Shown: positions 13,324-59,412 of the stretch, one piece after another
How positions within the stretch are numbered: position 1 is the first letter of the stretch
Layout: each line of letters opens with the position of its first letter
Virus record (IMG/VR): IMGVR_UViG_3300004448_000116
Span: 2,188 to 66,187 of that record
Origin: a virus
Taxonomy: Duplodnaviria; Caudoviricetes
Length of the DNA stretch: 64,000 bases
Strand: one strand, 5' to 3'
Notes under the pieces: model-generated
Database searches by the model: none
What the model was told of the DNA's origin: nothing
The model's input: the letters and a program-made list of their open reading frames with translations, nothing else
Translations under genes and position numbers: made by a program

Positions 13324-14829
13324 ATGACCGAAAAAAAACAAACCGCACAGAGCCTAAACATCAGAGCCGCTAAAGCAATTGCCGACACAGTTCGGTCAAC
13401 GCTTGGACCAGCGGGGATGGACAAAATGATGGTTGATGGAGGTGGAAATGTCATCGTGACAAACGATGGTGCCACAATCCTACAACAACTTGACATCACC
13501 CACCCCGGTGCGAAGATGATTGTTGAAGCCGCAAACACGCAAGAAACCATGTGTTATGATGGTACAACGACTACGACAATTCTGGCCGGTGAACTACTGG
13601 CCAATACACAAGAACTGTTCAACAAAGGACTGCACCCAAATGTAGTCTGCAAAGGGTATCGTCAAGCCGCCAAGTGGGCAGTGGAACACATCAACGGCAT
13701 CACCGTCAAAGACATTGAGCCATACCTACGACAAGTGGCTAAGACTGCTATCACCGGTAAAGCACTGGAAAGCAACGAATTGCAAGTCAGTGCCCTGTGC
13801 GTCAAAGCAGTCAACCGTGCCAAGGGTGACATCAAGCGCATCAGCGTCGTGTGTCAGCCGGGTGGCTCACTGGAAGATTCGTACTGCTTCTCTGGCAAAA
13901 TCTTGAATCAGACCTTTATGATGTCAAGCATGGAGAACGAGCCTACACCACAGGTAGTCCTCATCAATTCTGGACTTTCCAAGCAAGAGGACAGCGTACA
14001 AGTCAATGTGTCGAATGTTGGTGATTACAAGTCCTATCAGGAATACGCCAACAAGGACATCTGGCAAGACAAGGTGGAAAAAATCGTCGACATGCTACCG
14101 AAAGGTGGAGTTGTCTTCTGTCGTGATTCGGTCAACGAACTGGTTGCGGCCTTGCTTTCCAAGAACAAAATCAGTGTTGCTCAGAGAGTCCCTCCGAGTG
14201 ACATGGAGGCTATGGCTATCCTGCTCGGCACAACAGTGGCTCACTCAGTCGAAGACTTGAATGGCTCTGACCCAGCAGGCAAGGTGCTTCAATTCACCAT
14301 GGGCGACATGCAATACATCAGCGTCGAGGATGTCCATGGTAATGAAAACAGCGTCACTACCTTGGTCCTACGAGGAGCCACTCGTCAAACACTCGACGAA
14401 ACAGAACGAGGCTTTGACGATGCGTTGGGCGTAGTCTGCCTTGCTTTCAACAGCGAGTGTATCGTCAGAGGAGGAGGTTCGTCTTACATGAACGCCGCCC
14501 TCAACCTGCGCTCTCGTGCCGCCGAAATCGGAGGTCGAGCACAGATGGCCATCGAAGCCTTCGCCAACGCCTTGGAGAGCATTCCTGCTACCATTGCGCA
14601 GAATGCAGGTCATGACCCGTTGGACATTATTCTTGAGTTGAGGAACGAACACCTTCAAGGCAACTTTGATTACGGCCCTGATATTTACAACGGCGGTACA
14701 ATCTCAATGGGAGCGGCGAATGTATGGGAACCGTACGAACTTGTGAAGCAGGCTATTCAGTCAGCAAGCGAGGTCAGCATTAGCATCCTACGCATCGATG
14801 ACATCATTGGACGGAAGTCTGAGGATTGA
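13324..14829 (+). CDS. ths: Group II chaperonin (thermosome subunit)
   Basis: STLGPAGMDKM, TNDGATIL, DGTTT, LRGAT..LDETER..DDAL, ILRIDD. Confidence 0.96.
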   Translation: MTEKKQTAQSLNIRAAKAIADTVRSTLGPAGMDKMMVDGGGNVIVTNDGATILQQLDITHPGAKMIVEAANTQETMCYDGTTTTTILAGELLANTQELFNKGLHPNVVCKGYRQAAKWAVEHINGITVKDIEPYLRQVAKTAITGKALESNELQVSALCVKAVNRAKGDIKRISVVCQPGGSLEDSYCFSGKILNQTFMMSSMENEPTPQVVLINSGLSKQEDSVQVNVSNVGDYKSYQEYANKDIWQDKVEKIVDMLPKGGVVFCRDSVNELVAALLSKNKISVAQRVPPSDMEAMAILLGTTVAHSVEDLNGSDPAGKVLQFTMGDMQYISVEDVHGNENSVTTLVLRGATRQTLDETERGFDDALGVVCLAFNSECIVRGGGSSYMNAALNLRSRAAEIGGRAQMAIEAFANALESIPATIAQNAGHDPLDIILELRNEHLQGNFDYGPDIYNGGTISMGAANVWEPYELVKQAIQSASEVSISILRIDDIIGRKSED

Positions 14830-15877
14830 CATCCCCCGCCGCTTGTTGCTCTTGGAGCATTTGTTCGTAGCGCACTTGGTCTTCCGATGGTCCGCCCACA
14901 TGTAATTCTGGTAAATCGCTTCTGAGTTCAGGGTCTGGGTGGTAAAATTCAGCCCCTTGATAAATACGGTCGCCCATTATTCTAAACCTTTCTTCGGCAG
15001 TCATGAAACCAGTTGGACTACTGCTGTCAGGTGTTAGGCTGTAAGCGCCGAATTCGTGACCTATTGACCGCAAGGGGCGATAAGACCCTTCTGCTTGTTC
15101 AACATCCAAATCTGTGAAGGTTTCAGGGTATTCTTCATCGCCATAAGGGTCTACATCTACACCTCCTCTTACCAAGACATCATATGCGGTCTTTGGTTTT
15201 AAGTAGCGTGGGTGGGTAGGGTTCAAAAGTTTTAGTGGGGGGTATTGTTCGGCCAATCGTTCGATGTTCTCTTGCTGTTCTCGCTTCAACGCTTCGATGT
15301 TAGTTTGCTGTTTCGCCCATTCTTCAATTTCATCATTGATGAGCCTATGTGTATGTTCATGAGCACCGATGCTGTATATTGCCTCAGCACCCTTGTCAAA
15401 GTCCTCCTCAGATGCCTGTTCGCCCATGAGGTTGCCTATATCGTCGTTCAATTTCACACCAACATAAGAACCATCTTCGTGCAATCGTGGTACTGAGCCT
15501 CCTCGATGGTACCTTCCGAATTTATCATTTTGGGGCCGAGGGAAATTAGGAGTGTCTGCCGGTCCTTTCTCGTGAGGTAAATCTGAATTGAACGGTAGCG
15601 TTTCCATTGAATGCATAACTTGTTCGTTGGTCACTGGCTCACCTGAAAATGCTTCTAAAAGGCGTCTTGTGGTTTCTTCATCCCCCACATTATGATTCAA
15701 TTCTGGGAAATCAGCGACTCTTCTTCTGGCATGCATTAGATGTCGTGCGTACATTTCAGTGGCGTATTCGTCGTTGTCAATAGCATCTTTGGGTAAATGG
15801 TGCCCACCAGCGTCCGTATCCCCCATGTGAAAATCCAATTTGAGGATTGACCAAGCAACATCAAGTGGCCTGACCAT
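14804..15877 (-). CDS. Acidic protein with HExxH zincin-like motif and N-terminal AWxxLK leader
   Basis: AHEHTH plus downstream GHEFGAY; N-terminus MVRPLDVAWSILK; 3' end overlaps the thermosome gene convergently. Confidence 0.6.
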   Translation of the reverse strand: MVRPLDVAWSILKLDFHMGDTDAGGHHLPKDAIDNDEYATEMYARHLMHARRRVADFPELNHNVGDEETTRRLLEAFSGEPVTNEQVMHSMETLPFNSDLPHEKGPADTPNFPRPQNDKFGRYHRGGSVPRLHEDGSYVGVKLNDDIGNLMGEQASEEDFDKGAEAIYSIGAHEHTHRLINDEIEEWAKQQTNIEALKREQQENIERLAEQYPPLKLLNPTHPRYLKPKTAYDVLVRGGVDVDPYGDEEYPETFTDLDVEQAEGSYRPLRSIGHEFGAYSLTPDSSSPTGFMTAEERFRIMGDRIYQGAEFYHPDPELRSDLPELHVGGPSEDQVRYEQMLQEQQAAGDVNPQTSVQ

Positions 15878-15892
15878 GTACAGGCGTAGCCC

Positions 15893-16732
15893 TCAATGAG
15901 TAATCAAATTATCCTCTTGGCTTTTGAGAATGTCCTTCACGACATCCAGAGCAGGGCGTAGGTCGGCTTCCTTGATGCCGCAGTTGAATCCCCACACATT
16001 GAGATGCCGCACCAAGGATTCGGTCGATAGATTAGCCCCACTGCCGTCAGCAAAGGGACAGCCACCAAGACCACCTATGCTTGAGTCGAACTGTTTGATA
16101 CCGTTCATCAGGCCGCTTCTAACAAGACTGAGGGCCCTCGATTCGTCGCCCTTGTGGTGCAAGTGAAGAGCAGGAGCCAAGCCCTCATCTTGAGCCATTT
16201 CAGCCCACAGTGCCACTTCTGGACGGGTGCCACAGCCTATTGTGTCAGAAAAAACAACAGTCGTTCCAAACATCTTAGCGTCCCGTAAGCACAGCCGCAT
16301 CATTTGCGGCGAAATCTCGCCACTATGAGGCGAGCCAAATGCCATAGAAAGGTACACTCGTACTTTCTCCTTGGGTACCTTGTCCATGAATGTCTTGTAC
16401 ATCAGAACAATCTCTGAGCGAGTCTTGCCCATGTTCTGGATATTGAAGGTTTCACATGGGCTGAACACTATGTTGATTTTGTCTATGCCTGTCTGTTGTG
16501 CACGGAGGAAGCCCCGCTTGTTCATGACAAGCCCAGCCCCTTTGGTGTACACGGCCTCTGCGTCAGCCATCTGTGGCAGAACCTTTGGATTAGCGAATGA
16601 AACTTCTTCGATGTCTTTGATGCCAGAAGCGTACAGTTGCTTTATCAGAAGCCTTTTTTTTTCGGTGCTGACCACAGTGCCCAGAGCCTGCAATCCGTCC
16701 CTTGGTCCGACTTCATAGACACTGATGTTCAT
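15893..16732 (-). CDS. hmgL: Hydroxymethylglutaryl-CoA lyase (DRE-TIM family), auxiliary metabolic gene
   Basis: EVGPRDGLQ, SF..PK.LPQMADA, SDTIG, HLH, GLGGCPFA..GN. ATG 16732 is coupled to the upstream micro-ORF. Confidence 0.92.
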   Translation of the reverse strand: MNISVYEVGPRDGLQALGTVVSTEKKRLLIKQLYASGIKDIEEVSFANPKVLPQMADAEAVYTKGAGLVMNKRGFLRAQQTGIDKINIVFSPCETFNIQNMGKTRSEIVLMYKTFMDKVPKEKVRVYLSMAFGSPHSGEISPQMMRLCLRDAKMFGTTVVFSDTIGCGTRPEVALWAEMAQDEGLAPALHLHHKGDESRALSLVRSGLMNGIKQFDSSIGGLGGCPFADGSGANLSTESLVRHLNVWGFNCGIKEADLRPALDVVKDILKSQEDNLITH

Positions 16733-16884
16733 TGCTGACCCTTCCGCAAACCGTCCATGCACATTTCCTGCAATTCAGCAGGGTCAGTGAAGAATACGAC
16801 ATCAGAGCCTAAGTCTTTGGTGACATACCAAGTGAACAAAAATCCGCAGATAAAACTCAAGATAAAAAACAGCCAAAGACCCAT
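16729..16884 (-). CDS. Single-pass membrane microprotein, 51 aa (MGLWLFFILSFICGFLFTWYVTKDLGSDVVFFTDPAELQEMCMDGLRKGQQ)
   Basis: Not in the ORF track. N-terminal hydrophobic helix, TGA overlaps the HMG-CoA lyase ATG (ATGA), TATA-like element upstream. Confidence 0.7.
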   Translation of the reverse strand: MGLWLFFILSFICGFLFTWYVTKDLGSDVVFFTDPAELQEMCMDGLRKGQQ

Positions 16885-16899
16885 GTGCAAGGACAGCGC

Positions 16900-16937
16900 G
16901 GTGCAAAAATTAAACCTTCCGGTAGTATCGCTCTACT
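16900..16937. promoter_or_regulatory. Putative bidirectional TATA element
   Basis: AAAAATTAAA (about 16905-16914) lies 21-33 nt from both ATG 16884(-) and ATG 16938(+). Confidence 0.45.
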
Positions 16938-17036
16938 ATGCCCCGTTCCGACAAGGTCTTACTCCCACTCGCACTGTTGCTTATCGTAGGCTGGGCCATC
17001 GGTCTGGTTATGCATCACGCATGGCTTGGGAAATAA
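16938..17036 (+). CDS. Hydrophobic micropeptide, 32 aa (MPRSDKVLLPLALLLIVGWAIGLVMHHAWLGK)
   Basis: Clean transmembrane segment, TATA at leaderless spacing; overlaps the 3' end of 17008-17274 in antisense. Confidence 0.45.
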   Translation: MPRSDKVLLPLALLLIVGWAIGLVMHHAWLGK

Positions 17037-17274
17037 GCATACGAGATAGTGCTCCGTAGCGTTTGGCCTTCAACCGCTTCTTTGATTTCTTAGCCGACTC
17101 CTTCTGCCCTAAAGGACCGAAGCCTCCGTGCTTGCGGGCGTAGCCACACTGAGGACATTCGTGATACACCACATGCTTACCATTAGCGTACCGTCCGCTA
17201 ACGGACAAAGGCAAGGCTGTTGTGCCACAGCACTCACAGGTCTGCATCAAAGATTTGACAAGAGCACCCATCAA
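17008..17274 (-). CDS. Basic Zn-ribbon protein
   Basis: CECC...CPQCG, Lys-rich tail, ATGA coupling. Confidence 0.7.
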   Translation of the reverse strand: MMGALVKSLMQTCECCGTTALPLSVSGRYANGKHVVYHECPQCGYARKHGGFGPLGQKESAKKSKKRLKAKRYGALSRMLISQAMRDA

Positions 17275-18401: not shown

Positions 18402-18402
18402 T

Positions 18403-18756
18403 TTAGTTCACCTCGATTATGGTTGCGAACCGGAGTTCGTTGTTGCTGGTCTTGCTGACCGATTGGAATGTGTACCTGAACAGCACTGTTGTGTCAGTAG
18501 CGTCAGATGGGTTCTGATATTGAATGCATACCTCACGCAGAGGCAAAGTGAAGGCCGAAGACAATGGTAATACGGCTTCGACATAGATGGTGTGGTCGTC
18601 CACGATACGAGTCGTAGGTACGGCTGTGTAAGCAGGTCGACCTGCCCCACCATCCTCAGAAGTGGCAACTGTTCCGTCGAAACCAAACACGACCTGATTG
18701 ATTCGGCTATTCAGTTGGTCAACCAAGAATCTGTTTCCGTCTGTTAGTAATGGTAT
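18403..18756 (-). CDS. Putative baseplate/tail-collar-like protein (start uncertain: ATA 18756 or TTG 18726)
   Basis: 'LREVCI...LFRYTF..VSKTSNNELRF' tail-collar-like pattern; the SD-like sequence sits upstream of the ATA. Confidence 0.55.
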   Translation of the reverse strand: MPLLTDGNRFLVDQLNSRINQVVFGFDGTVATSEDGGAGRPAYTAVPTTRIVDDHTIYVEAVLPLSSAFTLPLREVCIQYQNPSDATDTTVLFRYTFQSVSKTSNNELRFATIIEVN

Positions 18757-18757
18757 G

Positions 18758-20167
18758 TCATCCTCTCCTCGTGATTGTTTCTTGTCGCTTCGGGTTTTGA
18801 ATTTTCAATAAGGCTACCTGCTTGGCCTGCGCCTCGCTCGACTTGCCGCCAATAATACTGCGGGTACCGTGCCCAATCAAAAAGCCAGCGGAGTCAACAA
18901 TCGTATTCCCAAGGTCCCATTTGGTTGAAATCTTGAACCGTGCGCTGGCTGAGAACTCCTTTGTTTCAATTTGGCGACTGTGCTCGTCCCCTATTTCACC
19001 AAGTGAAGTAATGTCCCCTTCCTGAAACCTCTGAAGTAGGTCTTCGATACCACTGTCAAGCGAACCTATTTTGAAGTCGGCCATTTTCTCAACCAAGTGG
19101 TGCCGGGCTTGCAACACATGGTAAATACTGTCATCACCATGCGCTTGATAGCGCACTTTTTCAGCAGGCTGTAAGGAGGAAGACCTGATAACTTTGTTCA
19201 GTGTGATTGAGCCAGTTGCATTAGCGGCACTGGATAAGAAACGCTGTCCAATGGCTTTGGCGCTTGCTCGTGAAACAGCAGTGGGAGCGAATATGCCACC
19301 GGGTACTTCTATGATACCATTCTTTTGAGCGTTAAGGTCCCCTACAACTACGGTGTTATCATCATTGTTCGCACGAACCTTACCCCTTACGGTCACGCTG
19401 TTAGGCAAACTCTTACTCTTCGTACTGCTTTTCCCATCCGTGACCATCTGCCCTGTCAAATAATGCATTTTGTTGTTTTGAAGTTGATGTTGGTAGGACA
19501 AATTGCCAAACCTGTCACTCACAAGGCGGTGACCGTCGTGCCTGCTCACGAAACGCATGGCTGTGACACCATCAACGCCGTTGAAGTCCTTTGCAACGAA
19601 GGTCCCACTGCCGCGAGAGCGGCTAATCTCAACTGAGTTGAGTGAACTGGTCTGATTATCGCCTATTCGGGCCGCAAGGTCGCTTGTACGAAGCCCTACA
19701 CTTGCTTTTTGAGTGATTTGTACTTCTGTACCGTCAAACCCAAGGTCGGAGAGTGATTTACCCTTCAAATTGGGCAGAATGAACCGTGTTCCCTTGGTAG
19801 CAGACTCGATTTGACTCATAGTAAGGGCCTGAGAGGCGTTATCTGCATTTACAAGCAGTGCAGGAGTCGAATCCCCTTCGCTAAGTGAGCCGTCCGAGTG
19901 AAATAGCGAACCGGTGTAGCGATGACTGTCCGTTTGCTTGTGAACCAGTTCGATTGTGTCCTCTTGCTCCACCAAGGTGTACCTACGGTCATGTGCAGGC
20001 ACAAAGTCGGACTGAACGGGCTTTGCTACCTGTCTTTTTGATGATGTTTGAGTGTACACGGCGTGTTTGACACCATTATCGACGAATCTCGGCTTACGGA
20101 CCCGCTTCATCACTGCACCTTGAGCCGCATCTGAGCGGCCGGTTGAAAGATTCTTACCCAGTGCCAT
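18758..20167 (-). CDS. Putative baseplate hub / tail protein
   Basis: Synteny; hub-like segments 'DRFGNLSY', 'PNSVTVRG', 'AKAIGQRFL'; TGATG coupling at 20167. Confidence 0.5.
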   Translation of the reverse strand: MALGKNLSTGRSDAAQGAVMKRVRKPRFVDNGVKHAVYTQTSSKRQVAKPVQSDFVPAHDRRYTLVEQEDTIELVHKQTDSHRYTGSLFHSDGSLSEGDSTPALLVNADNASQALTMSQIESATKGTRFILPNLKGKSLSDLGFDGTEVQITQKASVGLRTSDLAARIGDNQTSSLNSVEISRSRGSGTFVAKDFNGVDGVTAMRFVSRHDGHRLVSDRFGNLSYQHQLQNNKMHYLTGQMVTDGKSSTKSKSLPNSVTVRGKVRANNDDNTVVVGDLNAQKNGIIEVPGGIFAPTAVSRASAKAIGQRFLSSAANATGSITLNKVIRSSSLQPAEKVRYQAHGDDSIYHVLQARHHLVEKMADFKIGSLDSGIEDLLQRFQEGDITSLGEIGDEHSRQIETKEFSASARFKISTKWDLGNTIVDSAGFLIGHGTRSIIGGKSSEAQAKQVALLKIQNPKRQETITRRG

Positions 20168-20496
20168 CAGCAATTCCACCGTTTAAGGGAAGCCCCTTTT
20201 GGTGTCAACTTGCCTTTCTTACTGGTTGGTCCTTTGACACCAGTCATGCGAGCGCAGAAGGATTTTCTTCGCTTGGCAGACTTGCTACCCGCCTTCAATT
20301 TGCTGGGCTTCTTGGTGACAGGTGGTTTAAGATTAGCGCCTGTTTTGCGCTTAGCGGCGGCTCGACCTTTGGCGTTCAGCCCGCCCTTTTTGTTGTGCTT
20401 GTTAGGGTTGTACCCGTGAAACGGTTTGCTCTTCTTTTTCTTGGCGGCTTTCAATACCGCCCAAGCATGGTCCATAGCATCATCCATGTCCATCAC
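20167..20496 (-). CDS. Small highly basic protein (DUF6321-like) with AWxxLK leader
   Basis: 'GGLNAKGR..NLKPPV..RRKSFCARM..SLKRWNC' pattern; N-terminus MDDAMDHAWAVLK. Confidence 0.7.
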   Translation of the reverse strand: MMDMDDAMDHAWAVLKAAKKKKSKPFHGYNPNKHNKKGGLNAKGRAAAKRKTGANLKPPVTKKPSKLKAGSKSAKRRKSFCARMTGVKGPTSKKGKLTPKGASLKRWNC

Positions 20497-48692: not shown

Positions 48693-48911
48693 TCAGACCA
48701 AGTAAGTGACGAGAAAATAATGGTTGCCAAGTGACATGAAAGGCTCGATAGAGAAAAGAGCGGTAGTGTTGGCGGCCGCTATTTCTGTACCGCCATTACC
48801 ACCTATTGCACGGAGGTCAGATTGTATAAGGTCAGACGCTGTACCATCGGCCATAGCCTTGGGACTGTAAGGACCAATGACCCGAGAGCCATACCCTTGT
48901 AAAAGTGCCAT
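48693..48911 (-). CDS. Small putative structural protein
   Basis: SD GAGGTGA; in the head operon. Confidence 0.6.
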   Translation of the reverse strand: MALLQGYGSRVIGPYSPKAMADGTASDLIQSDLRAIGGNGGTEIAAANTTALFSIEPFMSLGNHYFLVTYLV

Positions 48912-48922
48912 CGTTAGTCACC

Positions 48923-49674: not shown

Positions 49675-49683
49675 TTAACCACC

Positions 49684-50097
49684 TCAAGATACGATGGCCA
49701 TAAAGCCAGTACTGCCGGTTAAATTGCCTTCACAAGCAAATGTGATTGCCGATGTTCCGAGCCCTGCGTCCACTGAGCAAGAAGTCGATGCGACTCCTGA
49801 GCCGCCGATTACGATTGCGTGAACCGTGTCTGAATCTCCGCCGATAGTCATTACATTGTTGTTCTGCACCAAAGTGCAAGTCCCAACAATCAATTTGAGG
49901 CCACGGCCTGCTGTGTTGGTTGTGTCGTCATTGGTTGCTTGGAAACCAGTGATGCTACCGGGGTATGCACCGGTTGCACCAGCGGCACCATCAAGCCAGC
50001 GTATGCCGTCGTTGAGGGCACCTGCATAAAGGTCCAATTCAAAATCGACGGTCATTACGCCGCCTGCGCCTGTTGTTCGTGTAAAAGTTGTTGCCAT
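49684..50097 (-). CDS. Putative capsid decoration protein
   Basis: Directly after the MCP gene, Gly/Thr-rich, SD GGAGATGA. Confidence 0.55.
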   Translation of the reverse strand: MATTFTRTTGAGGVMTVDFELDLYAGALNDGIRWLDGAAGATGAYPGSITGFQATNDDTTNTAGRGLKLIVGTCTLVQNNNVMTIGGDSDTVHAIVIGGSGVASTSCSVDAGLGTSAITFACEGNLTGSTGFMAIVS

Positions 50098-50136
50098 ATT
50101 TGTTCATCTCCATATTTTTTTTGTTCACCATCAATC

Positions 50137-51321
50137 TCAAGACAAATCTCGGATTGAACCATGACCTCCAAAGAAAGTTGTCCAGACTTCACCCATTGTT
50201 CGGTAAAGTCCCTCTTGTCCGAGGCGGTTAATGGCGAATGGGTCACCGGTTTCAATACCAGACTCGTAGTACTGAGTTGGTTTTGCAACACTAAAGTGAA
50301 GGTAGTCAGTGTCCAAGAAGTACATTCGGCTGATACCGTCTGCTGTGACATCCTTGGATGGAATGATTGGGACACCGTTGTAGGTAGCGACGATGAATCC
50401 GGCTTCGATACCGGGGACACCCTTGACGCCGCCCATGGTTGGGGTCACACGCTTTTCTTCCATGAACCGCTGTTGGCTCTGGAGGAGTTGTTGCAGGCGC
50501 ATCAAAGTGTCATATCCTGTGAGGATGACCTTTGGATTGCCACCACGGACCCAAATCTTCTGGAAGATGTCGTCGATGTGGTCGAGGCTGAGAACACGCT
50601 CAGTCAGCGAAGCGTCAGTTGCGACATTGACTTCTGCGTTGGACCAAGAGTTTCCACTTCGGTCGATGCTGTAAATGTCAAGGTCAGATGCGGCGCTCAC
50701 ATGCGCAGTGTGAGTAGTGGAAGAGCCACCGCTCACGGTTGCGGCATATCCAGTACCGGTTGCGTCCATGGTGCTTGAAGCAGTGATTCGGTCCAAGGAC
50801 TCGTAATCGTTGCCAGCAGGAGTGTCAACATCTTGCAAAAGCATCTTGTTGATTTCCTCTGCGTGGTGCTTGCCCATTTCCTCTTTGAGGACGGAGCGGA
50901 TGTCACCAAGACCGTCATCCTTGTCGTTAAGGAAGATTGCAACTTCGCTCATGTCGAAGGTGTGTGCAATGGTCTTTGGCTTTGCGGCCACATGTTGGAA
51001 GACAGGCTTGGTGGTTTCTGGAAGTGTTCCATTCTCAGCAATGCCGCCACCCTTGGATGAATCAGGGCGAGCGGTCACGACACGCCATCCAGAGCGGTCC
51101 CAAGGTTTCTTGGGCAAAATGCTGAATGCGTTGAATTCTTGGTTGAGTTGGGACCACACTTTGCGTCCGTAGATTGCTTGGTAGGTACCAGCAGTCGTCG
51201 AGAGCATTGGTGCGTCAGCCTTCAGAAGTTCACTACCGGAGTATGCGTAGCCCATGTTTGAGCCTGCACCGTAGTAGTAGCGTTCCATATCGTTAATTGT
51301 TCGTAGGTAGTTTCGTGCCAT
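50137..51321 (-). CDS. Major capsid protein (HK97 fold)
   Basis: 394 aa after the protease gene; 'GGIAENGTLPET', 'AKPKTIAH', 'TYNGVPIIPS', 'HGSIRDL'; strong SD GAGGAGG. Confidence 0.9.
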   Translation of the reverse strand: MARNYLRTINDMERYYYGAGSNMGYAYSGSELLKADAPMLSTTAGTYQAIYGRKVWSQLNQEFNAFSILPKKPWDRSGWRVVTARPDSSKGGGIAENGTLPETTKPVFQHVAAKPKTIAHTFDMSEVAIFLNDKDDGLGDIRSVLKEEMGKHHAEEINKMLLQDVDTPAGNDYESLDRITASSTMDATGTGYAATVSGGSSTTHTAHVSAASDLDIYSIDRSGNSWSNAEVNVATDASLTERVLSLDHIDDIFQKIWVRGGNPKVILTGYDTLMRLQQLLQSQQRFMEEKRVTPTMGGVKGVPGIEAGFIVATYNGVPIIPSKDVTADGISRMYFLDTDYLHFSVAKPTQYYESGIETGDPFAINRLGQEGLYRTMGEVWTTFFGGHGSIRDLS

Positions 51322-51334
51322 ATATTATTCCTCC

Positions 51335-52747
51335 TCATTCAAATGCTTTTCCCGCAAGACTGTGGACTTCGTCCCAAGACATGTTTGCGAGGTCTTCAGT
51401 TGAAGGGACATTGATGGATGGTGCGGCGGCCGACTTGCGGATGCTTGCACCTTCGGCGGAGCCGAGGTTGTCGATGCGACTGCTCAAGGAGGCAATTGCC
51501 TTCTCGATAGAAGCAAGTGGTTGGCGTGCATCAAAATCTTGAGCACGGCGGGATTCGACTTCGTGAGTCTGTTCCTTGGCGAGTCGGTCAGCGAACACAT
51601 TTCCAAGAGAGGACTTGAGTTGCTTTTCGATGGATGCGGCCTTGTAGGCTTCGTATGCCATCTCGACTTGAGAGGAGGTGAGGTCGGCTGGGTGAAGGTA
51701 GCCCTTTGCAACATCTGCTTTGGAGCCACTGTTCAGGGCGCTGATTGCACCGGTTGATGGGTTGCCACCTTCTTGGGCTCGTCCACGGACTTGTCCAGCG
51801 AAGTATTCAGCACCGTCAACGGACGATGGGTTGTCGAAGCCACCAAGTTGTGCCTTCTCCAAGTTGTCGAAGTGGGAACGAGCGTTAGCAGTGTCAACAC
51901 CGCCAGCCTTGAGTGTGTTCTCCATCCAGTTGAGGTAGTCAGATGAGATGACATCGCTGTATTCGGATTTTGCGGCCATGTCTTGGTCGCCACCGTACAT
52001 TTTGTCTTCCTTGTCCTTGTCTTCGGACATTTCTTTGCCCTTGTCTTTGTCCTTGTCTTCGGAAGATTTGTCTTCATCTTTTTCTTCTTTCTTATCGTTC
52101 ATGGCCGCAAATGGGTTGACGCCTTTTTCACCCTTTTCCATTCCATCAAGTCGCATGTTAATTCTGTCCAGTACGGACGAAAGTTCATTCATTGTTGTAT
52201 CTTCTGTCATATTCGTGTCCTCCTTCAAAATTCTGAAGGTTGCTTCTGGGTTGATACCCTTTTCGCAAATCGTCACTTCGTGGAGTTCTAACTTGGAGAT
52301 TTCAGTGTAATCTCCATGCTTTGAATCGGATTTGTTGACACGCTTGAAAGCCTGTCCTCCGATACTGAACCCCCGTAGGGCACCCTTGCGAATTTCATTG
52401 GCCACTTCTCGGGCCTTTTCGATGTCATCACGAAGTTTGATGACAACAAAGAGCCCGGCATCATCAACGCCGGATTTCCAAAGTCGTCCACTGCTATCAG
52501 TGTAAGAGTCGATAACCGACCCGACTTGGATGTTGGAATGTGCGAGTTGCACATTGCGGAAGTCTTCTGCTTTCATGAATCCACCAAATGCATCCTTTAG
52601 TGCATTGCGGGTGATGAGGTCGCCTTGCTTGTCGACCATTTCGACGGAAGCATATCCTGCGACGACAAGGTCCTGACCACTCTTCAGAATAGAAATACTA
52701 CCTTCTTGGGAGAAGGGAGTGGTTCTGAGGGAAGTCGCCATGACCAT
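51335..52747 (-). CDS. Prohead protease fused to a scaffold-like C-terminus
   Basis: 'VAGYASVEMVDKQGD', 'LAH', 'GFSIGG', 'LHEVTICEKGINPEA'; acidic and coiled-coil tail. Confidence 0.88.
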   Translation of the reverse strand: MVMATSLRTTPFSQEGSISILKSGQDLVVAGYASVEMVDKQGDLITRNALKDAFGGFMKAEDFRNVQLAHSNIQVGSVIDSYTDSSGRLWKSGVDDAGLFVVIKLRDDIEKAREVANEIRKGALRGFSIGGQAFKRVNKSDSKHGDYTEISKLELHEVTICEKGINPEATFRILKEDTNMTEDTTMNELSSVLDRINMRLDGMEKGEKGVNPFAAMNDKKEEKDEDKSSEDKDKDKGKEMSEDKDKEDKMYGGDQDMAAKSEYSDVISSDYLNWMENTLKAGGVDTANARSHFDNLEKAQLGGFDNPSSVDGAEYFAGQVRGRAQEGGNPSTGAISALNSGSKADVAKGYLHPADLTSSQVEMAYEAYKAASIEKQLKSSLGNVFADRLAKEQTHEVESRRAQDFDARQPLASIEKAIASLSSRIDNLGSAEGASIRKSAAAPSINVPSTEDLANMSWDEVHSLAGKAFE

Positions 52748-52780
52748 TACCCCACGATACGACGGTCATATTATATTAAG
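52748..52780 (-). promoter_or_regulatory. Putative promoter of the capsid operon
   Basis: Minus strand reads CTTAATATAATATGACCGTCGTATCGTGGGGTA-ATG; AT block at -30 to -22. Confidence 0.55.
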
Positions 52781-55700
52781 AGGTATGATACACGGCTTTG
52801 TCCTCTGTGAGTTCTAAATCAGAACTCAGTGCGCTGTTTTTATCAACTTCTTTTTTGTCTTCGGCCTCGTCTTTCTTGTCCCTTTCAATATCACGCACAT
52901 CGTAGTCAGGCATGGTGTTGCTATCGTCAAGGTTTGTGGGGCCGCCGGGTGATTGCAGGCCAGAGCCATAATCAAAAGCGAGTCCCTTTGCTCCAGAGTT
53001 ATCCCCGCTTACGGCACCTGCACTGCTCTTGGCAAGCAAACGCATAGCAACTTCAAGTCCCTTAGCCATGACTGCTTTCTTTTTCCAGTCCGTGTCCTTG
53101 ACCTTCTTAGGTTCAATGAGTGGTTCGGCATCATCTTCGGATTCGTGCACCTGTGCCTTTTCTTCGATTTCCATGTTGGCCTTCAACAAGATGCCAACAA
53201 TTGGTGACCAGAATGGGCGTTGGCTTTCTGAAAGCCGAATCAGATAACCGTTATCACTGCGTGGCGTGTGGACTGCCCAGCCTACTTGTGTTTGCGTAGC
53301 CTTGTACAAAACAGAACCCTCATTCATTTCAATACGAACAAGGTGGCCCTTTCTAAAAATTTCAACTCCGTGTTGGTATGGTTCAGCCTTAGCAAGAATT
53401 CCAAGGGAGTCACTGCTGACGAGGGGGTCGCCTTCCGCTTCACCTTCGATTTTAGATGCATGTACCGTGTACAACTTCTGCTGTTCAGACGCCTGAGTTT
53501 CGGTCACATTGGTGACATCGACCTTCACCAAGTCACCGACATTGTACTTGTCTTCACTTTCAAAAGCCGCTCCAACATCCATGTAATCTTCATCTTCGTA
53601 CTTGACTCTGCGGTCACCCAAGTCTTCACCGTGTGCAACAGGTCCGGTTCCAAGTCGGTATGTGTAAGGCCCGTCACCTCGGCGGTCAAGGACCATGAGC
53701 ACAACTTCTGTGCCGCTTTGCAACATAACCCACTTTGGGTGACGAGGCTCTCCTTTCATGTAAGCCGACTGAGCGTCACGCATGAGAATGCGGTCAGTAT
53801 CGAGAGCCTTGACCGCAGAAGCAAGACCGTCGTCGTCAGTGAGTTTTGTGTCAGATGCACTGGGCACATGCACCATCTCATAACTTTCCATGGCACCACG
53901 AAGAATCTTGATGCGCTCTTGAACCACCATTTCGTAGGCTTTTTCATCGTCGTATTCAACAACATCGAAGATATGCAATACATCCTTGCCACGGATGACA
54001 TCAACGATGTACTGCTTATCACTGACTTTTTTGAAAGCATCTTTCTCTTCATCAGAAAGAGTAGCCTTAGAGAAAATTTTGCCCTCTTTGTGACCAACGA
54101 AAAACCGCTCGCCTTCTGGGAATGCACTTACAATCCAGTCGCCAGTGAACCCACGAAGATGTTCCAAATCACTCAGTTCAAAAATACGATGCATAGGTTG
54201 CAAAGATGGAACGCCCTCTGGCATGTCCTTCCTGATGACATCAGGATTTGTGAGCGAGGCAAGAAGCGAAGGGCCGTCCATCTTATTGTGCTCTGTACCC
54301 TGACCGCTATATATTGTTCGGTTTGCAGAATTAGGTAGCATAGAATGAGGCATGCTGTCCAGAGTGTGAGCACCCTTGTGCGCTGGACCGAATGCAGAAT
54401 GATGTTCTGGTGGAGCAAGGGCCAGCACTGAGGGCAGTGTCGGAGTAATCAATTGCATCTTTTCTGGCTTATCCTTCTTGTACGCTGTCATTTCTCCTGT
54501 GGTATGGTCGATGTGAAGACCAAGTGGTACGGTGTGGTTGCGGCTACCCTCATGGTATCTGAGCGAAGGAGAACTGTAAATGGCCATGGCGGCATTTGTG
54601 TCATGGCTACCAAGGGCACCTATCTGTTGTAATTCTAACGCATGGTCTTCTCGCATACTGTGAGTCTTTCGCTCGTGTTGTTCATCAACTGGTCGAGAAA
54701 CAAAACCAGAAAGTGTCGAAAGCAAACCGAGGATGTGCTGGTCGTGTTTTGTGACTTGGTCCGGTTTTTTGTACCGTTTAGGTACCTGCAACTCTGGCTC
54801 GCCTGCTTTTCTGCGGCGTTTGTTCTCTGTTTCAAAATATGTTGGAGAAAGTTGATGTGCGGAGGAATGGAGGGGGTGATGTGACAAAAAATTGTCTTTC
54901 ATTGCGGGTCTGTTTTTTGTCAGGTTCTCAAATTGTGTCAAAGTCTGCATAATCTTGCGTCGACGGTTGAACCTATCCGTCCAACCTTTGTCCTGTGCGT
55001 GCAGAGGATGGATGTTCGTGCCCTTAATATGCGAAGGCTTCGCTTCCTTTCCACGGGACTTGCGCCTTTTTGCCCCTGTAAGCAACAGGTTTTCCAAAGG
55101 TACATTGTCAGCAGACTTGGTATTTCCCATCGGATGTCTATCGACGATTTTGTCACCGATTTTCCTAAAACTCATTTCATCTTTCAGATAAGTCGGCAGA
55201 CTGTCACCGAACTTTTGACCGTACACTTCATCCGACATTCCGCCCATCCTGCGAATAATTTCTTCCGAAGGGACGACCATGAATTCCCTACCTATTTTGT
55301 CTTCGGCCTTGTTTTTCGCCATGAGTTGCCGTTTGACTTCTATGGCGTGCTCGATGACCCCTTTGTCAACATTGTTCTCCACGACCTCGTTCCCGTCCTC
55401 ATCCTCAACCAGTTCTGTCAAATCCAATTTTCTAAGCCACTCGGCATCTGTCAGACCACTGGGGTTAAGTTTGTACGGGTTCGTTTCCAACATATTGACA
55501 AGCATATTTTCGTGCGATACGCCCTCACCCGGATTTTCTTCTTCTACTTGCCCAACAACGGGCATCATAGCCCCGATTTTATGACTTCCATGTGGAGCAA
55601 CATTGAGGAAGGTATTCCCTTGCATCATCAGCCAAGCGACCGCTGTGTCAGGCCGTGGGTTTCCAAATTCATCCTTGAACATTTCAAAGGGGTCAAAGCC

Positions 55701-58667
55701 TTGCTCAAGACATTTCTGCAAGACTAACATAGCCGCTTGTTCAATAGCCTCAATGTGACTATTGACTGTTTCTTGAAATTTACCTTCACTGTCCAGATGC
55801 CGATAACGAGGGTTTGGGATTTCTTTACCTTCCCTGTCCAGATGAGGAGCAATTTCATCATCAGTCACAACATTGAGTTCGTTCTCAATATCGAGCAAAT
55901 CTTGCTCATGATGGTGTTTTTCCATTTTCAATCTGTCTATTTCTTCAACCTGTACAGCATCTGGACTGTCCAAGCGCAGGAGTTTTTGCAAATCGTCGTT
56001 GACTTGATGGAGTTCCATAGAGATGTAATCATGGTTGTGATGGAGTTGTTCAAGTCTTCCATCTTCATCTTCATCTTCATCGGGCAATTGAACCGTTTCA
56101 TCTGAACTCTCAGGCAGTTCCCCTGATTGTCGTGCCTCAAGATAACGCTTGAGGCCAGCGAGGTCCCCTTCAACAAGTGACCCGCCTCCGTGAATCTCAT
56201 CATGGCGTTGTCTTGCCAATTGTTTTTGCGTTTGAAGGGTCTGCAAACCTTGTTCGACATTGCGAACCGTTGCCTCGGGAATAAGAGGGTTTGCCTTTAC
56301 TTGTGCCAGAGAACTGAGGTACTGTTGAAGCAACTCTTCTTTCTCAAAAACGAACTCAGGGGCACTAAAAGAAGGCGGAATCGCTCCTTGTTTTCTGCGC
56401 TCTCTGTGCAACGCCCGCTCAAATTCTATTCTTGGCCCAGCCCCGAATTGAGCGTCGGGTACATCAAGCGGTATCTTTCGAGCATCGTGGGCTCTGACTC
56501 CTTGGGGATGCGTGGAAGGTAATCTTGCTCCTATCATTGCGGCTATCTTGTTGTGAGGCAGTGCCCTTTGTCCTTCCTTGAACGCAGAAGTTGATGTTTC
56601 AATGGCATTATTACCGGTACCCAAGAAGGCATTGTACGGAGCATGTACGGGTGCCTTTGTTGTATCGAATTGTTTGTCTTTGATTCTTTTTGCTGTACCG
56701 GTGTCACCCGCCGACATGGCCGAATGGTATTGAGTGTATGCTTCATTTACTTGTCTTCCTGCAAAGGTGTTGAGGTCACGAGTAATGTGCCTATTGCCAA
56801 ACCCTTTCCAATACACGGGTCCTCGCCCAATACCCATGTGCATTGACTCATCAGGTGGAAAGACAAAATTGACAGGGCCGTGTTCTGAATCTCTGGTAAA
56901 TTCACCACGGAGGTCAGGTACACTATATCCGGGGCGCATGCTGTTCAATTTAACATGAGAGTACCCCGGCAAAGTATCACCTACTGTATCTTCATACATA
57001 GGCCCCATCAAGGGGCGAATATCCATTTCGTGCGCCCCTTGTTGATGTGAAGAAAAATGAGTTGACCTTTCGCCCTCAACCAAATTAGTTGTGTGCTCGA
57101 TGTGTTTTCTGGTTTCGTGAGCCTTGCCCATACCACCTGTCCGCATGTGCGCTTTTGACCAATGATGGCTTAGTGATTCAGGCTCATTCATTGTGTACTC
57201 TTCTGGGTGCGCACCTTCACCTTCGTGCGCAACATAAGGCTGAGAGTGGAAAGCAACAGCATTTCTTGCACCGTGGTCCTTTCTATTTTTACTCATTTCT
57301 TCTTCAAACCTAAGCAGGTATTGTTTGATTTCATCTGGAGCCCAGTCCACTGAATTAGGATTCCACAGTTCCCCGTACAAGGGGTGCTCTCCCTGCTCAT
57401 AGAACCTGTAAGAATCGCCTCTCCTCTGAGTTGAGTCAGGGTCAATACCTGCCGCCAAGAGCAAATCGTTCTTTGAAAAACGGTCCTCGGGCGTACTATT
57501 TGCTGTATTTCTTCGGCGTAATCGACCGCCGCTCGGAAGGAAATATCCATGTTCATGTGGTTGTTTCATGTTGCCCCTTTCAGAATTGTAATCAAGAATG
57601 CGTTGAAACAAATCAGGTGCGTTCTGTTTGAATGTATTCTTAAATTGTACATTATCGTACTTGTAAGGCGGGTCTTTGAGCAATCTGGCAAGGACTGGGT
57701 TGGCGGCATAATTTGGGTGCCCTGTCCAGTGCTGGGCAATAGAAGAATAACGCTGTAAAAAATTACGCTTGGCTCGGGGTATGGAGTAATTCTCCAAACC
57801 CGGTATGGTTTGGTGCTCAGGGCTGTCCATATCATTCTCGGCCATGTGCTGATACACTTGTACACGCTGTGCAGGCGTAAGCCATTCCATTCCGTACAAG
57901 TAGTCCTCTTCACCCATACCTATGCGTCTTCCGCTCTCTTCGTCAATCTCGTCGCTTTGCCAACTTTTGACAGCCTCGTCCATGTGTATTCGGCGTAGGA
58001 ATTTTTCAAATTCTGCACCGTTAGGGCCATTCAGTCTATCGAGGATTTTTGGATTTCTTTCTATTTGTGGTTTGAGAAAATTGTAGTAATGACGCTCATA
58101 CAAATCGTGATTGCTTTGATTTTGCGGCAACGCACCTAAGCCATCAGGTTTTGTAATGTGGTCACTTAACAGATGCTCCTTTTCCCAAGCGTACTCTTTC
58201 TCTTTGTGCTTTTTGGAAACACCATCTGTGAAAAAGGATTCAAGCAAACGAACCCACATAGGTGCCATACTGAATTTTTCGCCGTCTGATTTAATTCCGC
58301 TATGGGTTTCATGCAAGGGGTCGAAATCAAGCGGCGACACATCTGGAAAGTGCTCTGCGCCCGTACCACGAAGTTCTTCCTGACGCTCAGGTGTAAGTTC
58401 GTTGAATTTTTGAATACGGTTTTTAGGCCAATGACTGCCTCTATGGACAGAGTCTTCCAATTTCTGTACTCGTTGTTCTTGTGGATATTGGGTCGGCAGT
58501 GATGACTGATACAGGCCGGGAGCGTCGGCAGAAGTTAAGGGCGGTACCGGTGCATTTCGATTTTCCTCATCTTGATACAGGGACATTGCCCTGTTAGGGT
58601 CAACTCCCAACGCAGAGGCTTGGTTAGCCTCATCTTCTGCGTCTTTCAGCAGAATATCTTCGGACAA
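52776..58667 (-). CDS. 1963-aa protein with C-terminal degenerate ATP-dependent DNA ligase fold (NTase + OB)
   Basis: LQPM, WIVSAFPEGER, YIVDVI, HIFDVV, ERIKIL, DRILMRD..S.Y..G..R..KW, OB-like domain; TTG start with SD GGCGGTGA. Confidence 0.75.
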   Translation of the reverse strand: MSEDILLKDAEDEANQASALGVDPNRAMSLYQDEENRNAPVPPLTSADAPGLYQSSLPTQYPQEQRVQKLEDSVHRGSHWPKNRIQKFNELTPERQEELRGTGAEHFPDVSPLDFDPLHETHSGIKSDGEKFSMAPMWVRLLESFFTDGVSKKHKEKEYAWEKEHLLSDHITKPDGLGALPQNQSNHDLYERHYYNFLKPQIERNPKILDRLNGPNGAEFEKFLRRIHMDEAVKSWQSDEIDEESGRRIGMGEEDYLYGMEWLTPAQRVQVYQHMAENDMDSPEHQTIPGLENYSIPRAKRNFLQRYSSIAQHWTGHPNYAANPVLARLLKDPPYKYDNVQFKNTFKQNAPDLFQRILDYNSERGNMKQPHEHGYFLPSGGRLRRRNTANSTPEDRFSKNDLLLAAGIDPDSTQRRGDSYRFYEQGEHPLYGELWNPNSVDWAPDEIKQYLLRFEEEMSKNRKDHGARNAVAFHSQPYVAHEGEGAHPEEYTMNEPESLSHHWSKAHMRTGGMGKAHETRKHIEHTTNLVEGERSTHFSSHQQGAHEMDIRPLMGPMYEDTVGDTLPGYSHVKLNSMRPGYSVPDLRGEFTRDSEHGPVNFVFPPDESMHMGIGRGPVYWKGFGNRHITRDLNTFAGRQVNEAYTQYHSAMSAGDTGTAKRIKDKQFDTTKAPVHAPYNAFLGTGNNAIETSTSAFKEGQRALPHNKIAAMIGARLPSTHPQGVRAHDARKIPLDVPDAQFGAGPRIEFERALHRERRKQGAIPPSFSAPEFVFEKEELLQQYLSSLAQVKANPLIPEATVRNVEQGLQTLQTQKQLARQRHDEIHGGGSLVEGDLAGLKRYLEARQSGELPESSDETVQLPDEDEDEDGRLEQLHHNHDYISMELHQVNDDLQKLLRLDSPDAVQVEEIDRLKMEKHHHEQDLLDIENELNVVTDDEIAPHLDREGKEIPNPRYRHLDSEGKFQETVNSHIEAIEQAAMLVLQKCLEQGFDPFEMFKDEFGNPRPDTAVAWLMMQGNTFLNVAPHGSHKIGAMMPVVGQVEEENPGEGVSHENMLVNMLETNPYKLNPSGLTDAEWLRKLDLTELVEDEDGNEVVENNVDKGVIEHAIEVKRQLMAKNKAEDKIGREFMVVPSEEIIRRMGGMSDEVYGQKFGDSLPTYLKDEMSFRKIGDKIVDRHPMGNTKSADNVPLENLLLTGAKRRKSRGKEAKPSHIKGTNIHPLHAQDKGWTDRFNRRRKIMQTLTQFENLTKNRPAMKDNFLSHHPLHSSAHQLSPTYFETENKRRRKAGEPELQVPKRYKKPDQVTKHDQHILGLLSTLSGFVSRPVDEQHERKTHSMREDHALELQQIGALGSHDTNAAMAIYSSPSLRYHEGSRNHTVPLGLHIDHTTGEMTAYKKDKPEKMQLITPTLPSVLALAPPEHHSAFGPAHKGAHTLDSMPHSMLPNSANRTIYSGQGTEHNKMDGPSLLASLTNPDVIRKDMPEGVPSLQPMHRIFELSDLEHLRGFTGDWIVSAFPEGERFFVGHKEGKIFSKATLSDEEKDAFKKVSDKQYIVDVIRGKDVLHIFDVVEYDDEKAYEMVVQERIKILRGAMESYEMVHVPSASDTKLTDDDGLASAVKALDTDRILMRDAQSAYMKGEPRHPKWVMLQSGTEVVLMVLDRRGDGPYTYRLGTGPVAHGEDLGDRRVKYEDEDYMDVGAAFESEDKYNVGDLVKVDVTNVTETQASEQQKLYTVHASKIEGEAEGDPLVSSDSLGILAKAEPYQHGVEIFRKGHLVRIEMNEGSVLYKATQTQVGWAVHTPRSDNGYLIRLSESQRPFWSPIVGILLKANMEIEEKAQVHESEDDAEPLIEPKKVKDTDWKKKAVMAKGLEVAMRLLAKSSAGAVSGDNSGAKGLAFDYGSGLQSPGGPTNLDDSNTMPDYDVRDIERDKKDEAEDKKEVDKNSALSSDLELTEDKAVYHTS

Positions 58668-58679
58668 ACGCTCACCGCC

Positions 58680-59030
58680 TCAATAGCGGTCGTTTGCTTT
58701 CTTGTCGCCGCCGTCGGTCAAGTGCCCTGCGAGCGTTGAGATAGCAGTAGGGTAGTAAGGATTCTTGTCGAGAACATTTGATTTCTCAGAGATAGCGCCC
58801 TTGTTGGCAATGTCTTCGACGGAAATAGTGCGTTGGTTGGTGCTGAAATACTGATTTTGTACACCTGTGTCGCCACCAACTTGAGTATGGAACTGCACAT
58901 CGTTAAGGTCAGTTCCTTCTTTCTGTGAGAAAGGAACGCCTTGTTCTTTCAACAAACGCTCTTCAACAACCTTAGCGGCTTTGAGAAGTTGGTCAACTTT
59001 GGGGTCACGAGGTTCGTATCTTGGTCGCAT
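58680..59030 (-). CDS. Hypothetical head-module protein, 116 aa (MRPRYEPRDPKVDQLLKA...)
   Basis: ATG 59030 with SD GGAGTGA; the longer ORF-track start overlaps the upstream gene. Confidence 0.65.
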   Translation of the reverse strand: MRPRYEPRDPKVDQLLKAAKVVEERLLKEQGVPFSQKEGTDLNDVQFHTQVGGDTGVQNQYFSTNQRTISVEDIANKGAISEKSNVLDKNPYYPTAISTLAGHLTDGGDKKANDRY

Positions 59031-59034
59031 GTTA

Positions 59035-59412
59035 TCACTCCATTCCTGTTCTGTTGCCGATTGCGCCTTTGCTTTTGGCATCGGACGCAAGTTGGTGAAT
59101 ATCTCCCCAGTCCATTTCATGGAACTCTCGGTTTGATTCTGGCATGTTAATGCCGTCGATGACTGGGTCAGACTTGAGCAAATCGCTGTGTGAATCTCCT
59201 CGGAACAAGTCAGGCATGACATCGGCAGGCATTGCGCTTCGTCGTGACACAAATCCTGCTTTCTTCAATAGAGCCGCAGGGTCTTGCATTAGACCCTTAA
59301 GCACTTGATTTTCTGCTTTCAAAACCTGCAAGTTGCTGTCCATAGTTTCCATTTTAGAAATTAGTGCAGACATCAACTTCTCGGCGACATTTTCCTCTCC
59401 TTGGTCGCTCAT
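59035..59412 (-). CDS. Coiled-coil head-module protein (scaffold-like)
   Basis: C-terminal 'MDWGDIHQLA' resembles the protease/scaffold terminus 'MSWDEVHSLA'. Confidence 0.7.
   Translation of the reverse strand: MSDQGEENVAEKLMSALISKMETMDSNLQVLKAENQVLKGLMQDPAALLKKAGFVSRRSAMPADVMPDLFRGDSHSDLLKSDPVIDGINMPESNREFHEMDWGDIHQLASDAKSKGAIGNRTGME

Follow-up and report, generated by a model that had tools for sequence, protein, structure and literature searches.

The stretch of DNA analysed here (the window: 64 kb, bases 2188-66187 of a single viral record of 66,187 bp) belongs to an archaeal tailed virus, magrovirus-like in its genes, in which two otherwise unrelated proteins begin with the same short peptide. 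The peptide is almost certainly one instance of a real and portable tag that is specific to the magrovirus-like virus group. What is the tag for? The best explanation, to which we give a probability of roughly 0.55, is that it loads proteins into the capsid and ends in a site for the prohead protease; packaging into the head and delivery with the DNA are suggested by analogy with phage T4 and by the position and orientation of the tagged genes.

Both tagged genes share the strand of the long run of structural genes (coordinates are those of the window, and its features are on the minus strand unless marked +). One encodes a putative zincin metallopeptidase of 357 residues, called here the HExxH protein (14804..15877), whose codons 1-13 (15839..15877) spell the leader MVRPLDVAWSILK. 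The other encodes a very basic protein of 106 residues (20167..20487) that belongs to DUF6321 (PF19846, 64.2 bits versus a cut-off of 28.5) and carries the leader MDDAMDHAWAVLK (20449..20487) when the ATG at 20487 is taken as its start; this ATG is the most likely start because its spacing equals that of homologues beginning MADAFEVAWDILK, and the start region overlaps the stop of the upstream 5478-aa gene. The first-pass annotation had described a shared short N-terminal helix on these two proteins, and both do carry the leader, with (L/M)D-x-AW-x-(I/V)LK in common: seven of the 13 residues differ, yet the D-x-A-W-x-(I/V)-L-K core is kept, and residues 8-13 of the HExxH protein match AW..[LIVM]K. 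This last pattern occurs only twice among the 45 open reading frame (ORF) translations taken as genes, each time at the N-terminus, and all six frames of the 66,187-bp genome, scanned with a relaxed pattern, held no tag beyond the same two leaders.

MVRPLDVAWSILK is unchanged in 14 of 15 close homologues of the HExxH protein, which are 55-75% identical to it overall (the fifteenth comes without its N-terminus), and three distant homologues begin M-x-x-F-[DE]-x-A-[WF]-x-[LIVF]-[LIVF]-K; leader residues 4-11 are modelled as a helix, with low confidence. H173, E174 and H177 are invariant across 18 sequences. The protein matches no Pfam or PHROG family; its AlphaFold model (mean pLDDT 58.5) has no Foldseek match in the PDB at E <=0.001, and the ESM Atlas returned scores of at most 0.84 and no informative family. 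In the DUF6321 leader, W9, L12 and K13 are invariant among 13 aligned homologues. DUF6321 has 7060 relatives at E <=0.01; many proteins of the family begin with a tag-like leader, and some metagenomic ones fuse small basic modules, with the tag at the joints; a PHROG search of both tagged proteins matched only six unnamed DUF6321 families. In two marine T7-like phages, Prochlorococcus phage P-SCSP2 (2187-3165 of locus L001) and Pelagibacter phage HTVC131P (2607-3096 of locus L002), the gene of a leaderless DUF6321 homologue stands between those for scaffold and capsid, a position that fits an internal head protein. The same interval of marine T7-like phages holds three to five tiny, very basic proteins, of which the leaderless DUF6321 protein is one.

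How far does the tag travel? A collection of viral contigs was searched with degenerate DNA for M-x-x-F-D-x-A-W-x-L-L-K, and 119 matching stretches yielded 148 distinct ORFs that start with the tag (112 of them complete; 46-506 residues, median 157). The in-frame open stretch upstream of the tag is at most 35 codons in 138 of the 148, so the ATG of the tag is likely the start. With the tag removed, these ORFs fall into 79 single-linkage BLAST clusters that are unrelated to each other, 51 of them singletons: one leader stands on many different proteins, which makes it portable. Synonymous codons vary at every degenerate position of the tag, a sign that selection acts on the peptide, and even positions that the pattern leaves free are biased: position 3 is Ala or Pro in 140 of 148, position 13 is Ala, Met or Glu in 88, and position 14 is Pro in 41. 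The cargo sequences diverge exactly where the tag ends, and where a Met-Pro is kept right behind the Lys, the tag seems to have been placed before a complete protein. The idea of the first-pass annotation that a portable tag recruits swappable effectors thus gains strong support from the 148 ORFs in 79 clusters, from their tandem arrays, and from their occurrence in viruses with a major capsid protein (MCP) and a prohead protease of the window's type.

Five tagged contigs were studied as whole records, and five regions were fetched for their arrays. An MCP homologue (64-88% identity) is present in four of the five records, the miss being a fragment estimated as 30% complete, and a prohead protease in all five; every strict tag match in these records (22/22) lies on the strand of the MCP or protease gene, and a reversed-pattern control gave none. 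The fetched regions hold variable multi-gene cargo loci in which, by a relaxed pattern, 12 tagged genes stand back to back in each of two regions and 5-9 in the other three; arrays reach 12-13 genes, and near-variants counted by eye raise the number of tagged genes. Relaxed matches in the five regions number 50 on the array strand versus one on the opposite strand (equal residue number), and 34 of the 50 have a Met at the position exactly three residues before the match. Four further contigs from the pattern search recur among the best 80 MCP loci, and in MCP-centred loci four of five distinct strict matches stand at an N-terminus, 1.7-2.3 kb beyond the stop codon of the MCP gene, in four relatives. 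Marine metagenomes add at least 142 further tag stretches. Across 596 Gb of prokaryote genomes the pattern matched 16 times, about the level of chance; the only match that is a cargo relative sits on a virus-sized contig of 106 kb from a Poseidoniales single-cell assembly. We found no publication on the tag in a search that covered passages of two magrovirus papers; those passages make no mention of an N-terminus, a motif or a leader.

The tag is found inside proteins, too. In multidomain relatives it recurs at domain junctions as (T/S)GEP-M-[DE]-x-A-[FWM]-x-LLK, in up to three copies per protein, and to judge by sequence these junction copies look like the cleavage sites of a polyprotein. A C-terminal module, K-S-P-x-A-x-x-x-K-L-E-Y-D-K-Q-Y-x-K-x-P, repeatedly follows an internal tag (multidomain ORFs of loci L019, L007, L058 and L079).

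What are the cargo proteins? Pfam finds almost nothing above cut-offs in the 148 ORFs beyond DUF6321 and one HD_4 match (28.3 versus 27.2); weak matches are to HD_4, PARP, ART-PolyVal and HTH, the ART-PolyVal match of one cargo (E 0.0023) being below its cut-off. HExxH is present in 11 tagged cargos. The largest cluster, of 19 ORFs, carries [YF]H[GA]T, and several comparisons point the same way: its profile, set against the PDB, matches ADP-ribosyltransferases only, weakly (best E 7e-4), and its predicted structure (pLDDT 80) has KptA/Tpt1 as top Foldseek match (E 3.1e-4), followed by ADP-ribosyltransferase-fold proteins at all top ranks. On these models the largest cargo cluster is of ADP-ribosyltransferase fold.

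Why should the tag end in Lys? The same kind of ending is seen in the head proteins, above all in the MCP (394 residues, 50137..51321; PF17236 SU10_MCP, phrog_24667), where L32-L33-K34 (51220..51228) is a candidate maturation site before A35-D-A-P. An alignment of the window MCP with 120 full-length representatives (50%-identity clusters; the source matches are 31-57% identical to the query) has Lys at query position 34 in 105 of 121 sequences and Leu, Ile, Val, Phe or Met at P3 in 104 of 119, with Ala after the border Lys in 63 and Asp next in 75. Before the border lie 16-108 N-terminal residues and an indel-rich linker; after it begins the conserved body. In the halovirus HVTV-1 the border reads ...GGMSK/ADNLL. 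The HK97 MCP is cut at K103/S104, according to the passages available of PMC10275583, which sets a precedent for a cut after Lys.

The prohead protease (51335..52747) joins an S78 domain (residues 25-180 or so, with a conserved Ser128) to a C-terminal part that is scaffold-like; PF04586 matches residues 28-180 with 41.2 bits versus a cut-off of 21, and head maturation protease PHROGs match as well. At E <=0.01 only PF04586 (S78) and PF14550 (S78_2) match, and not the T4 gp21 family, so the enzyme is not of the T4 gp21 type. In an alignment of 25 sequences (62% mean column identity) three Lys are invariant, each at a candidate cleavage site: I20-L21-K22 (52682..52690) after the variable N-terminus, I173-L174-K175 (52223..52231) at the end of the protease domain, and I436-R437-K438 (51434..51442) about ten residues before the C-terminal tail. 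F171, I173, L174, K175, E176 and D177 are all invariant and are followed by a variable acidic linker; K438 is invariant amid a variable stretch. The tail itself, P448-A465 (51353..51406), reads PSTEDLANMSWDEVHSLA and keeps P448, T450, M456, W458, V461, H462, L464 and A465 without exception.

This tail has a counterpart. A helical, scaffold-like protein of 125 residues (59035..59412), conserved in 35 ORFs of related loci, ends in PESNREFHEMDWGDIHQLA (59086..59142), and in six frames of the genome W.[DE][IVL]H.[LM]A matches only these two tails; their common motif is P-[ST]-x-x-[DE]-x-x-x-M-x-W-x-[DE]-[VI]-H-x-L-A. About ten residues before the tail the 125-aa protein, too, has a candidate site, L78-L79-K80 (59173..59181), and hydrophobic-hydrophobic-Lys is kept here in most homologue rows amid variable surroundings. 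The two scaffold-type proteins probably bind the shell by this common tail, a second signal and a C-terminal one, and the Lys about ten residues before it may be a release cut.

Three further head-module proteins carry candidate sites. In the 116-aa protein (58680..59030) the N-terminal piece runs up to ...VDQLLK/AA (site 58980-58988); its gene starts at Met75 of a mechanically called 190-aa ORF, homologues start at the same Met, and the site is kept near residue 17 as [LM]L-K or LL-x-K. The 1963-aa protein (52776..58667), for which no Pfam or PHROG family was found, carries ILLK near its start (residues 5-8), and a further five sites, each with an invariant Lys, fall in the stretch from residue 1480 to 1880. 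With 14 of its 41 homologues aligned, Lys conservation is 0.82 at motif sites versus 0.39 at other Lys, a contrast that adds little because the best-kept sites lie in the conserved C-terminal part; K8, K331 and K1118 are poorly conserved. In HVTV-1, gene 115 (18622-22563 of locus L225; 1313 residues, annotated as 'zeta toxin') lies shortly upstream of the prohead protease gene, roughly the position of the 1963-aa protein. A weak site, I11-L12-K13 of the 842-aa protein (48346..48354), is kept in two of the three homologous N-termini seen.

The tag in full would thus be M-x-[AP]-[hydrophobic]-D-x-A-W-x-[hydrophobic]-L-K, a portable address of 12-13 residues used by magrovirus-like archaeal viruses. 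As a short amphipathic helix, with F/L, W, L and L on one face, it would attach freshly synthesised cargo to a component of the prohead during assembly, and its end would be a site for the S78 (HK97-type) protease: a hydrophobic residue at P3, Lys at P1, then a small or acidic residue. Like cuts would fall in the head proteins, at K34 of the MCP, at K22, K175 and K438 of the protease-scaffold, at K80 of the 125-aa protein and in the 116-aa and 1963-aa proteins, removing propeptides and scaffold tails; the cargo would be set free inside the head and leave it with the DNA. In the window this cargo would be two proteins, the putative zinc peptidase and the very basic DUF6321 protein; in relatives it would be up to a dozen or more, ADP-ribosyltransferase-fold enzymes among them. 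Carried to its full extent, the proposal becomes one of programmable protein delivery, in which the tag loads any protein, the HK97-type protease cuts after the Lys, and tandem arrays of quickly exchanged enzymes, up to a dozen or more (ADP-ribosyltransferases, zinc peptidases, HD hydrolases and basic DNA-binding proteins) are injected into Poseidoniales cells by what would be the first capsid-targeting code of an archaeal virus, independent of the T4 code. We hold this larger version tentatively, at slightly under even odds.

How special is hydrophobic-hydrophobic-Lys to head proteins and tags? The first-pass annotation listed 15 motif strings, and all 15 are present in the places given, the QLLKAA assigned to 59030 lying within the 116-aa gene; in a test for enrichment in the head module, such as it had proposed, [ILVM][ILVMRA]K[ADEGSN] reaches z 5.3 in the head core versus 0.34 in tail and 0.43 in replication proteins. 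The five head-core proteins have 20 such motifs versus 6.7 in shuffles, and none of 300 shuffles reaches 20. Within the first 35 residues [LIVM][LIVM]K occurs in 5/5 head-core proteins, 2/2 tagged proteins and 5/35 others (Fisher one-sided p 3e-5). In relatives the long ORFs around the MCP hold the tripeptide 212 times versus 151, a count that includes homologues and is therefore non-independent. Cargo proteins, once past the tag, avoid it: 137 non-redundant cargo bodies (19,476 residues) hold 10 versus 26.2 expected (z -3.45), none of 200 shuffles is as low, and five of the ten occurrences are junction tags. Controls in these bodies are neutral (Arg for Lys, 49 versus 43.6; Glu for Lys, 54 versus 50.6; reversed, 27 versus 26.1). 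The first-pass annotation had also suggested that the head protease clips after these Lys. The conserved MCP border, the invariant K22, K175 and K438, the depletion in cargo bodies and the K103/S104 precedent of HK97 lend this part of the claim indirect support; the cleavage itself is something that we only infer.

Several observations weigh against a capsid-loading tag with a protease site at its end. The enrichment and N-terminal tests rest on patterns and groupings that were set after the data had been viewed, and the structure of helical, scaffold-like proteins may of itself favour such tripeptides. The depletion is weaker in a replicate of 131 metagenome bodies (14 versus 22.1, z -1.79, 7/200 shuffles as low; about six of the 14 are junction tags), whose controls are noisy (hydrophobic-hydrophobic-Arg, 27 versus 34.3; Lys-hydrophobic-hydrophobic, 34 versus 21.3), and it is not significant in 19 further array bodies (2 versus 4.5). 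In many relatives 30-80 kb separate the arrays from the capsid gene. Besides its place at N-termini, the motif occurs inside proteins and once near a C-terminus. Within DUF6321 other Lys-terminated helices replace the tag, which could then be a structural element. HVTV-1, a cultured relative whose virion is known, despite its homologous MCP with a Lys border and its prohead protease, has no tag in the 100 of its 102 kb that were scanned. Finally, a chaperonin is encoded in all three tagged records that are at least 90% complete, so the tag might mark chaperonin clients. Co-folding of the MCP, the protease-scaffold and the DUF6321 protein, run without controls, gave a score of 0.00 and is uninformative either way. 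The motif near a C-terminus is FDDAWSILK, at about position 13279 (+) of locus L158, with at least 128 open codons upstream and 21 codons from the start of the motif to the end of the ORF; a fusion or a junction with a frameshift may explain it.

Could the helix dock onto something other than the head, such as the group II chaperonin, the tail lumen or portal, or a hub protein of the host, its Lys having nothing to do with the prohead protease? The chaperonin of the three near-complete records, which the window has as well, the distance of many arrays from the head genes and the copies of the tag within proteins would all suit such a role, for which no docking partner was identified; one tagged record that is 88% complete has no chaperonin match. 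A docking helix does not explain why the tag stops exactly where the cargos diverge, often just before a kept Met-Pro, why hydrophobic-hydrophobic-Lys is avoided in cargo bodies when the Arg, Glu and reversed controls are not, or why the same P3/P1 pattern marks the conserved border of the MCP, and we regard this alternative as rather unlikely. The cut might, conversely, be all there is: a viral or host protease would cleave after the Lys to activate proteins or separate their domains, and packaging would play no part. The junction copies of multidomain proteins, the conserved Lys sites of head proteins and the depletion in cargo bodies would all fit a processing site. The tag, with its twelve conserved residues and an invariant-looking A-W well upstream of the cut, exceeds the P3-P1 pattern that suffices at the MCP and protease sites. 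A prohead protease is expected to act inside the shell, as it does in HK97 and T4, so that its substrates must get there, and a role in processing only seems unlikely.

Two further explanations fare worse than these. The Lys sites of the head proteins could be due to chance or helix composition, which would leave only the two N-terminal leaders with a meaning: the pattern is short, it was defined from these very proteins, and the 842-aa site and K8, K331 and K1118 of the 1963-aa protein are poorly conserved. The head-core z of 5.3 beside values near 0 for tail and replication, the MCP K34 kept in 105/121 sequences, the three invariant Lys of the protease and the 0.82 versus 0.39 conservation in the 1963-aa protein make this distinctly improbable. 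A nucleic-acid signal or a joint for cassette shuffling, that is, a recombination site or a reused translation-initiation region with no function of the peptide, finds some room in the arrays, whose back-to-back genes with overlapping stops and starts could allow cassettes to be exchanged. Such a signal would be expected in the DNA, where synonymous codons vary freely, and not in the residues, which are fixed; the in-frame motif inside proteins and the two window leaders, with their core kept amid seven exchanged residues, speak against it as well, and it is highly improbable.

The closest analogue of the tag is the capsid targeting sequence (CTS) of T4, and the tag is not a member of the T4 system. 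The CTS is removed by the prohead protease, T4 cutting after Glu, and one T4 cargo, Alt, is an ADP-ribosyltransferase. To our knowledge the tag does not resemble the T4 CTS peptides, with which it was not aligned. The CTS is a short N-terminal peptide conserved on highly diverse internal proteins and is sufficient to bring foreign proteins into the head, according to the passages available of PMC3012670. The likeness lies in a short N-terminal peptide on otherwise unrelated proteins of one virus group (here 148 ORFs, two of them encoded in the window), in variable cargo loci, and in an ADP-ribosyltransferase cargo (Alt there, the largest cluster here); the tag differs in its proposed cut after Lys, its archaeal host, its far larger arrays of 12-13 genes and its additional place at internal junctions.

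HK97 offers the better model for the protease. Its prohead protease is the type member of family S78, and a C-terminal tail is said to carry this protease into the shell, as reportedly described by Duda et al. in 2013; we know of no family of tagged cargo in HK97. The window shares with HK97 the Pfam family of the protease and the Lys followed by a small residue at the MCP cut (K103/S104 there, the proposed K34/A35 here); the tail common to the protease and the 125-aa protein resembles the HK97 protease tail. The HK97 MCP, however, carries a scaffold domain of 103 residues, whereas here the scaffold-like part is on the protease and the proposed MCP propeptide is 34 residues long (16-108 in relatives).

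Other systems share one trait or another. The N-terminus of phage P1 DarA is cleaved by P1 Pro during morphogenesis, in the passages available of PMC12810830, and abstracts on SPN3US describe the packaging of many proteins that its prohead protease cuts. P1 Dar and the ejection proteins of giant SPN3US/phiKZ-like phages go into the head and undergo trimming by the prohead protease, as the tagged cargo is proposed to do, but their propeptides are longer and have no single short tag in common, their hosts are bacteria and their proteases are of other families. Polyvalent proteins and MuF-fused polymorphic toxins of phages, which Iyer et al. and Jamet et al. are both said to have treated in 2017, likewise include ADP-ribosyltransferase and zincin-type domains thought to travel in the virion. 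Those domains are fused into a giant protein or to a MuF head domain, whereas the tagged cargos are mostly separate small proteins of 46-506 residues, in which a sub-threshold ART-PolyVal match is the only link to that class. The cargo-loading peptides of encapsulins usually stand at the C-terminus, no protease removes them, and the shell that they serve is a nanocompartment of the cell. The tag would resemble them in being short and portable and in sending unrelated cargo into a shell of HK97 fold, and would differ in being N-terminal and in acting in a virion.

What would follow if the tag is a capsid address? Any protein that starts with M-x-[AP]-F-D-x-A-W-x-L-L-K would be a candidate virion cargo, and the set of proteins that one of the ocean's most abundant virus groups injects could be read straight from metagenomes. 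The T4 solution, a short removable address on hypervariable counter-defence proteins, would have arisen independently in archaeal viruses with another protease family, and there would be a compact tag with which to bring foreign proteins into shells of HK97 fold. For a virus group without a cultured member, the Lys border of the MCP makes a concrete and testable prediction of where the mature protein begins.

The order of genes in the window places these proteins. The plus strand, 1-14829, carries a replication module (an RFC-like AAA protein, family B DNA polymerase, a PD-(D/E)XK nuclease, an ERCC4 nuclease and the chaperonin, which is of group II: PF00118, E 1.9e-132). The minus strand is a single long gene run from 64000 down to 14804, which begins with the large terminase, an HNH-like protein, the portal and the 125-aa, 116-aa and 1963-aa proteins, continues with the S78 prohead protease and its long C-terminal extension, the MCP, small head and tail genes and the 5478-aa gene, and ends with the DUF6321 gene, three unknown genes, an HMGL-like gene and, last, the HExxH gene. 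The window MCP is 32-34% identical to the MCPs of the haloviruses HVTV-1, HCTV-1 and HCTV-5. Magroviruses, which we take to be tailed viruses of Poseidoniales, are linked to that host in our data by a single cargo-family match, the one on the 106-kb contig of the single-cell assembly. Their gene combination is a halovirus-like morphogenetic module with a near-complete archaeal-type replication module and a chaperonin, as given in the passages available of Philosof et al. 2017 (PMC5434244); the window has this combination in its halovirus-like MCP, PolB, RFC-like AAA protein, PD-(D/E)XK and ERCC4 nucleases and group II chaperonin.

Some neighbours of the genes discussed above deserve a word. 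The 5478-aa ORF (20493-36929) lies between baseplate-like genes and the DUF6321 gene, and neither half of it has a Pfam or PHROG match. The HMGL-like gene (15893..16762; PF00682, E 2.5e-18) is untagged and adjoins the HExxH gene; ORFs that share its N-terminal motif EVGPRDGLQ, found by eye and unscored, lie within the cargo arrays of four of the five fetched records (L203, 1548-2405; L204, 5203-6072; L205, 7955-8872; L206, 6948-7796). Between the large terminase and the portal is a 440-aa ORF (61529-62851) with an HNH-endonuclease PHROG match (E 9e-10). At the other end of the run the chaperonin gene (13324-14829, +) and the HExxH gene are convergent, and their 3' ends overlap by 26 bases.

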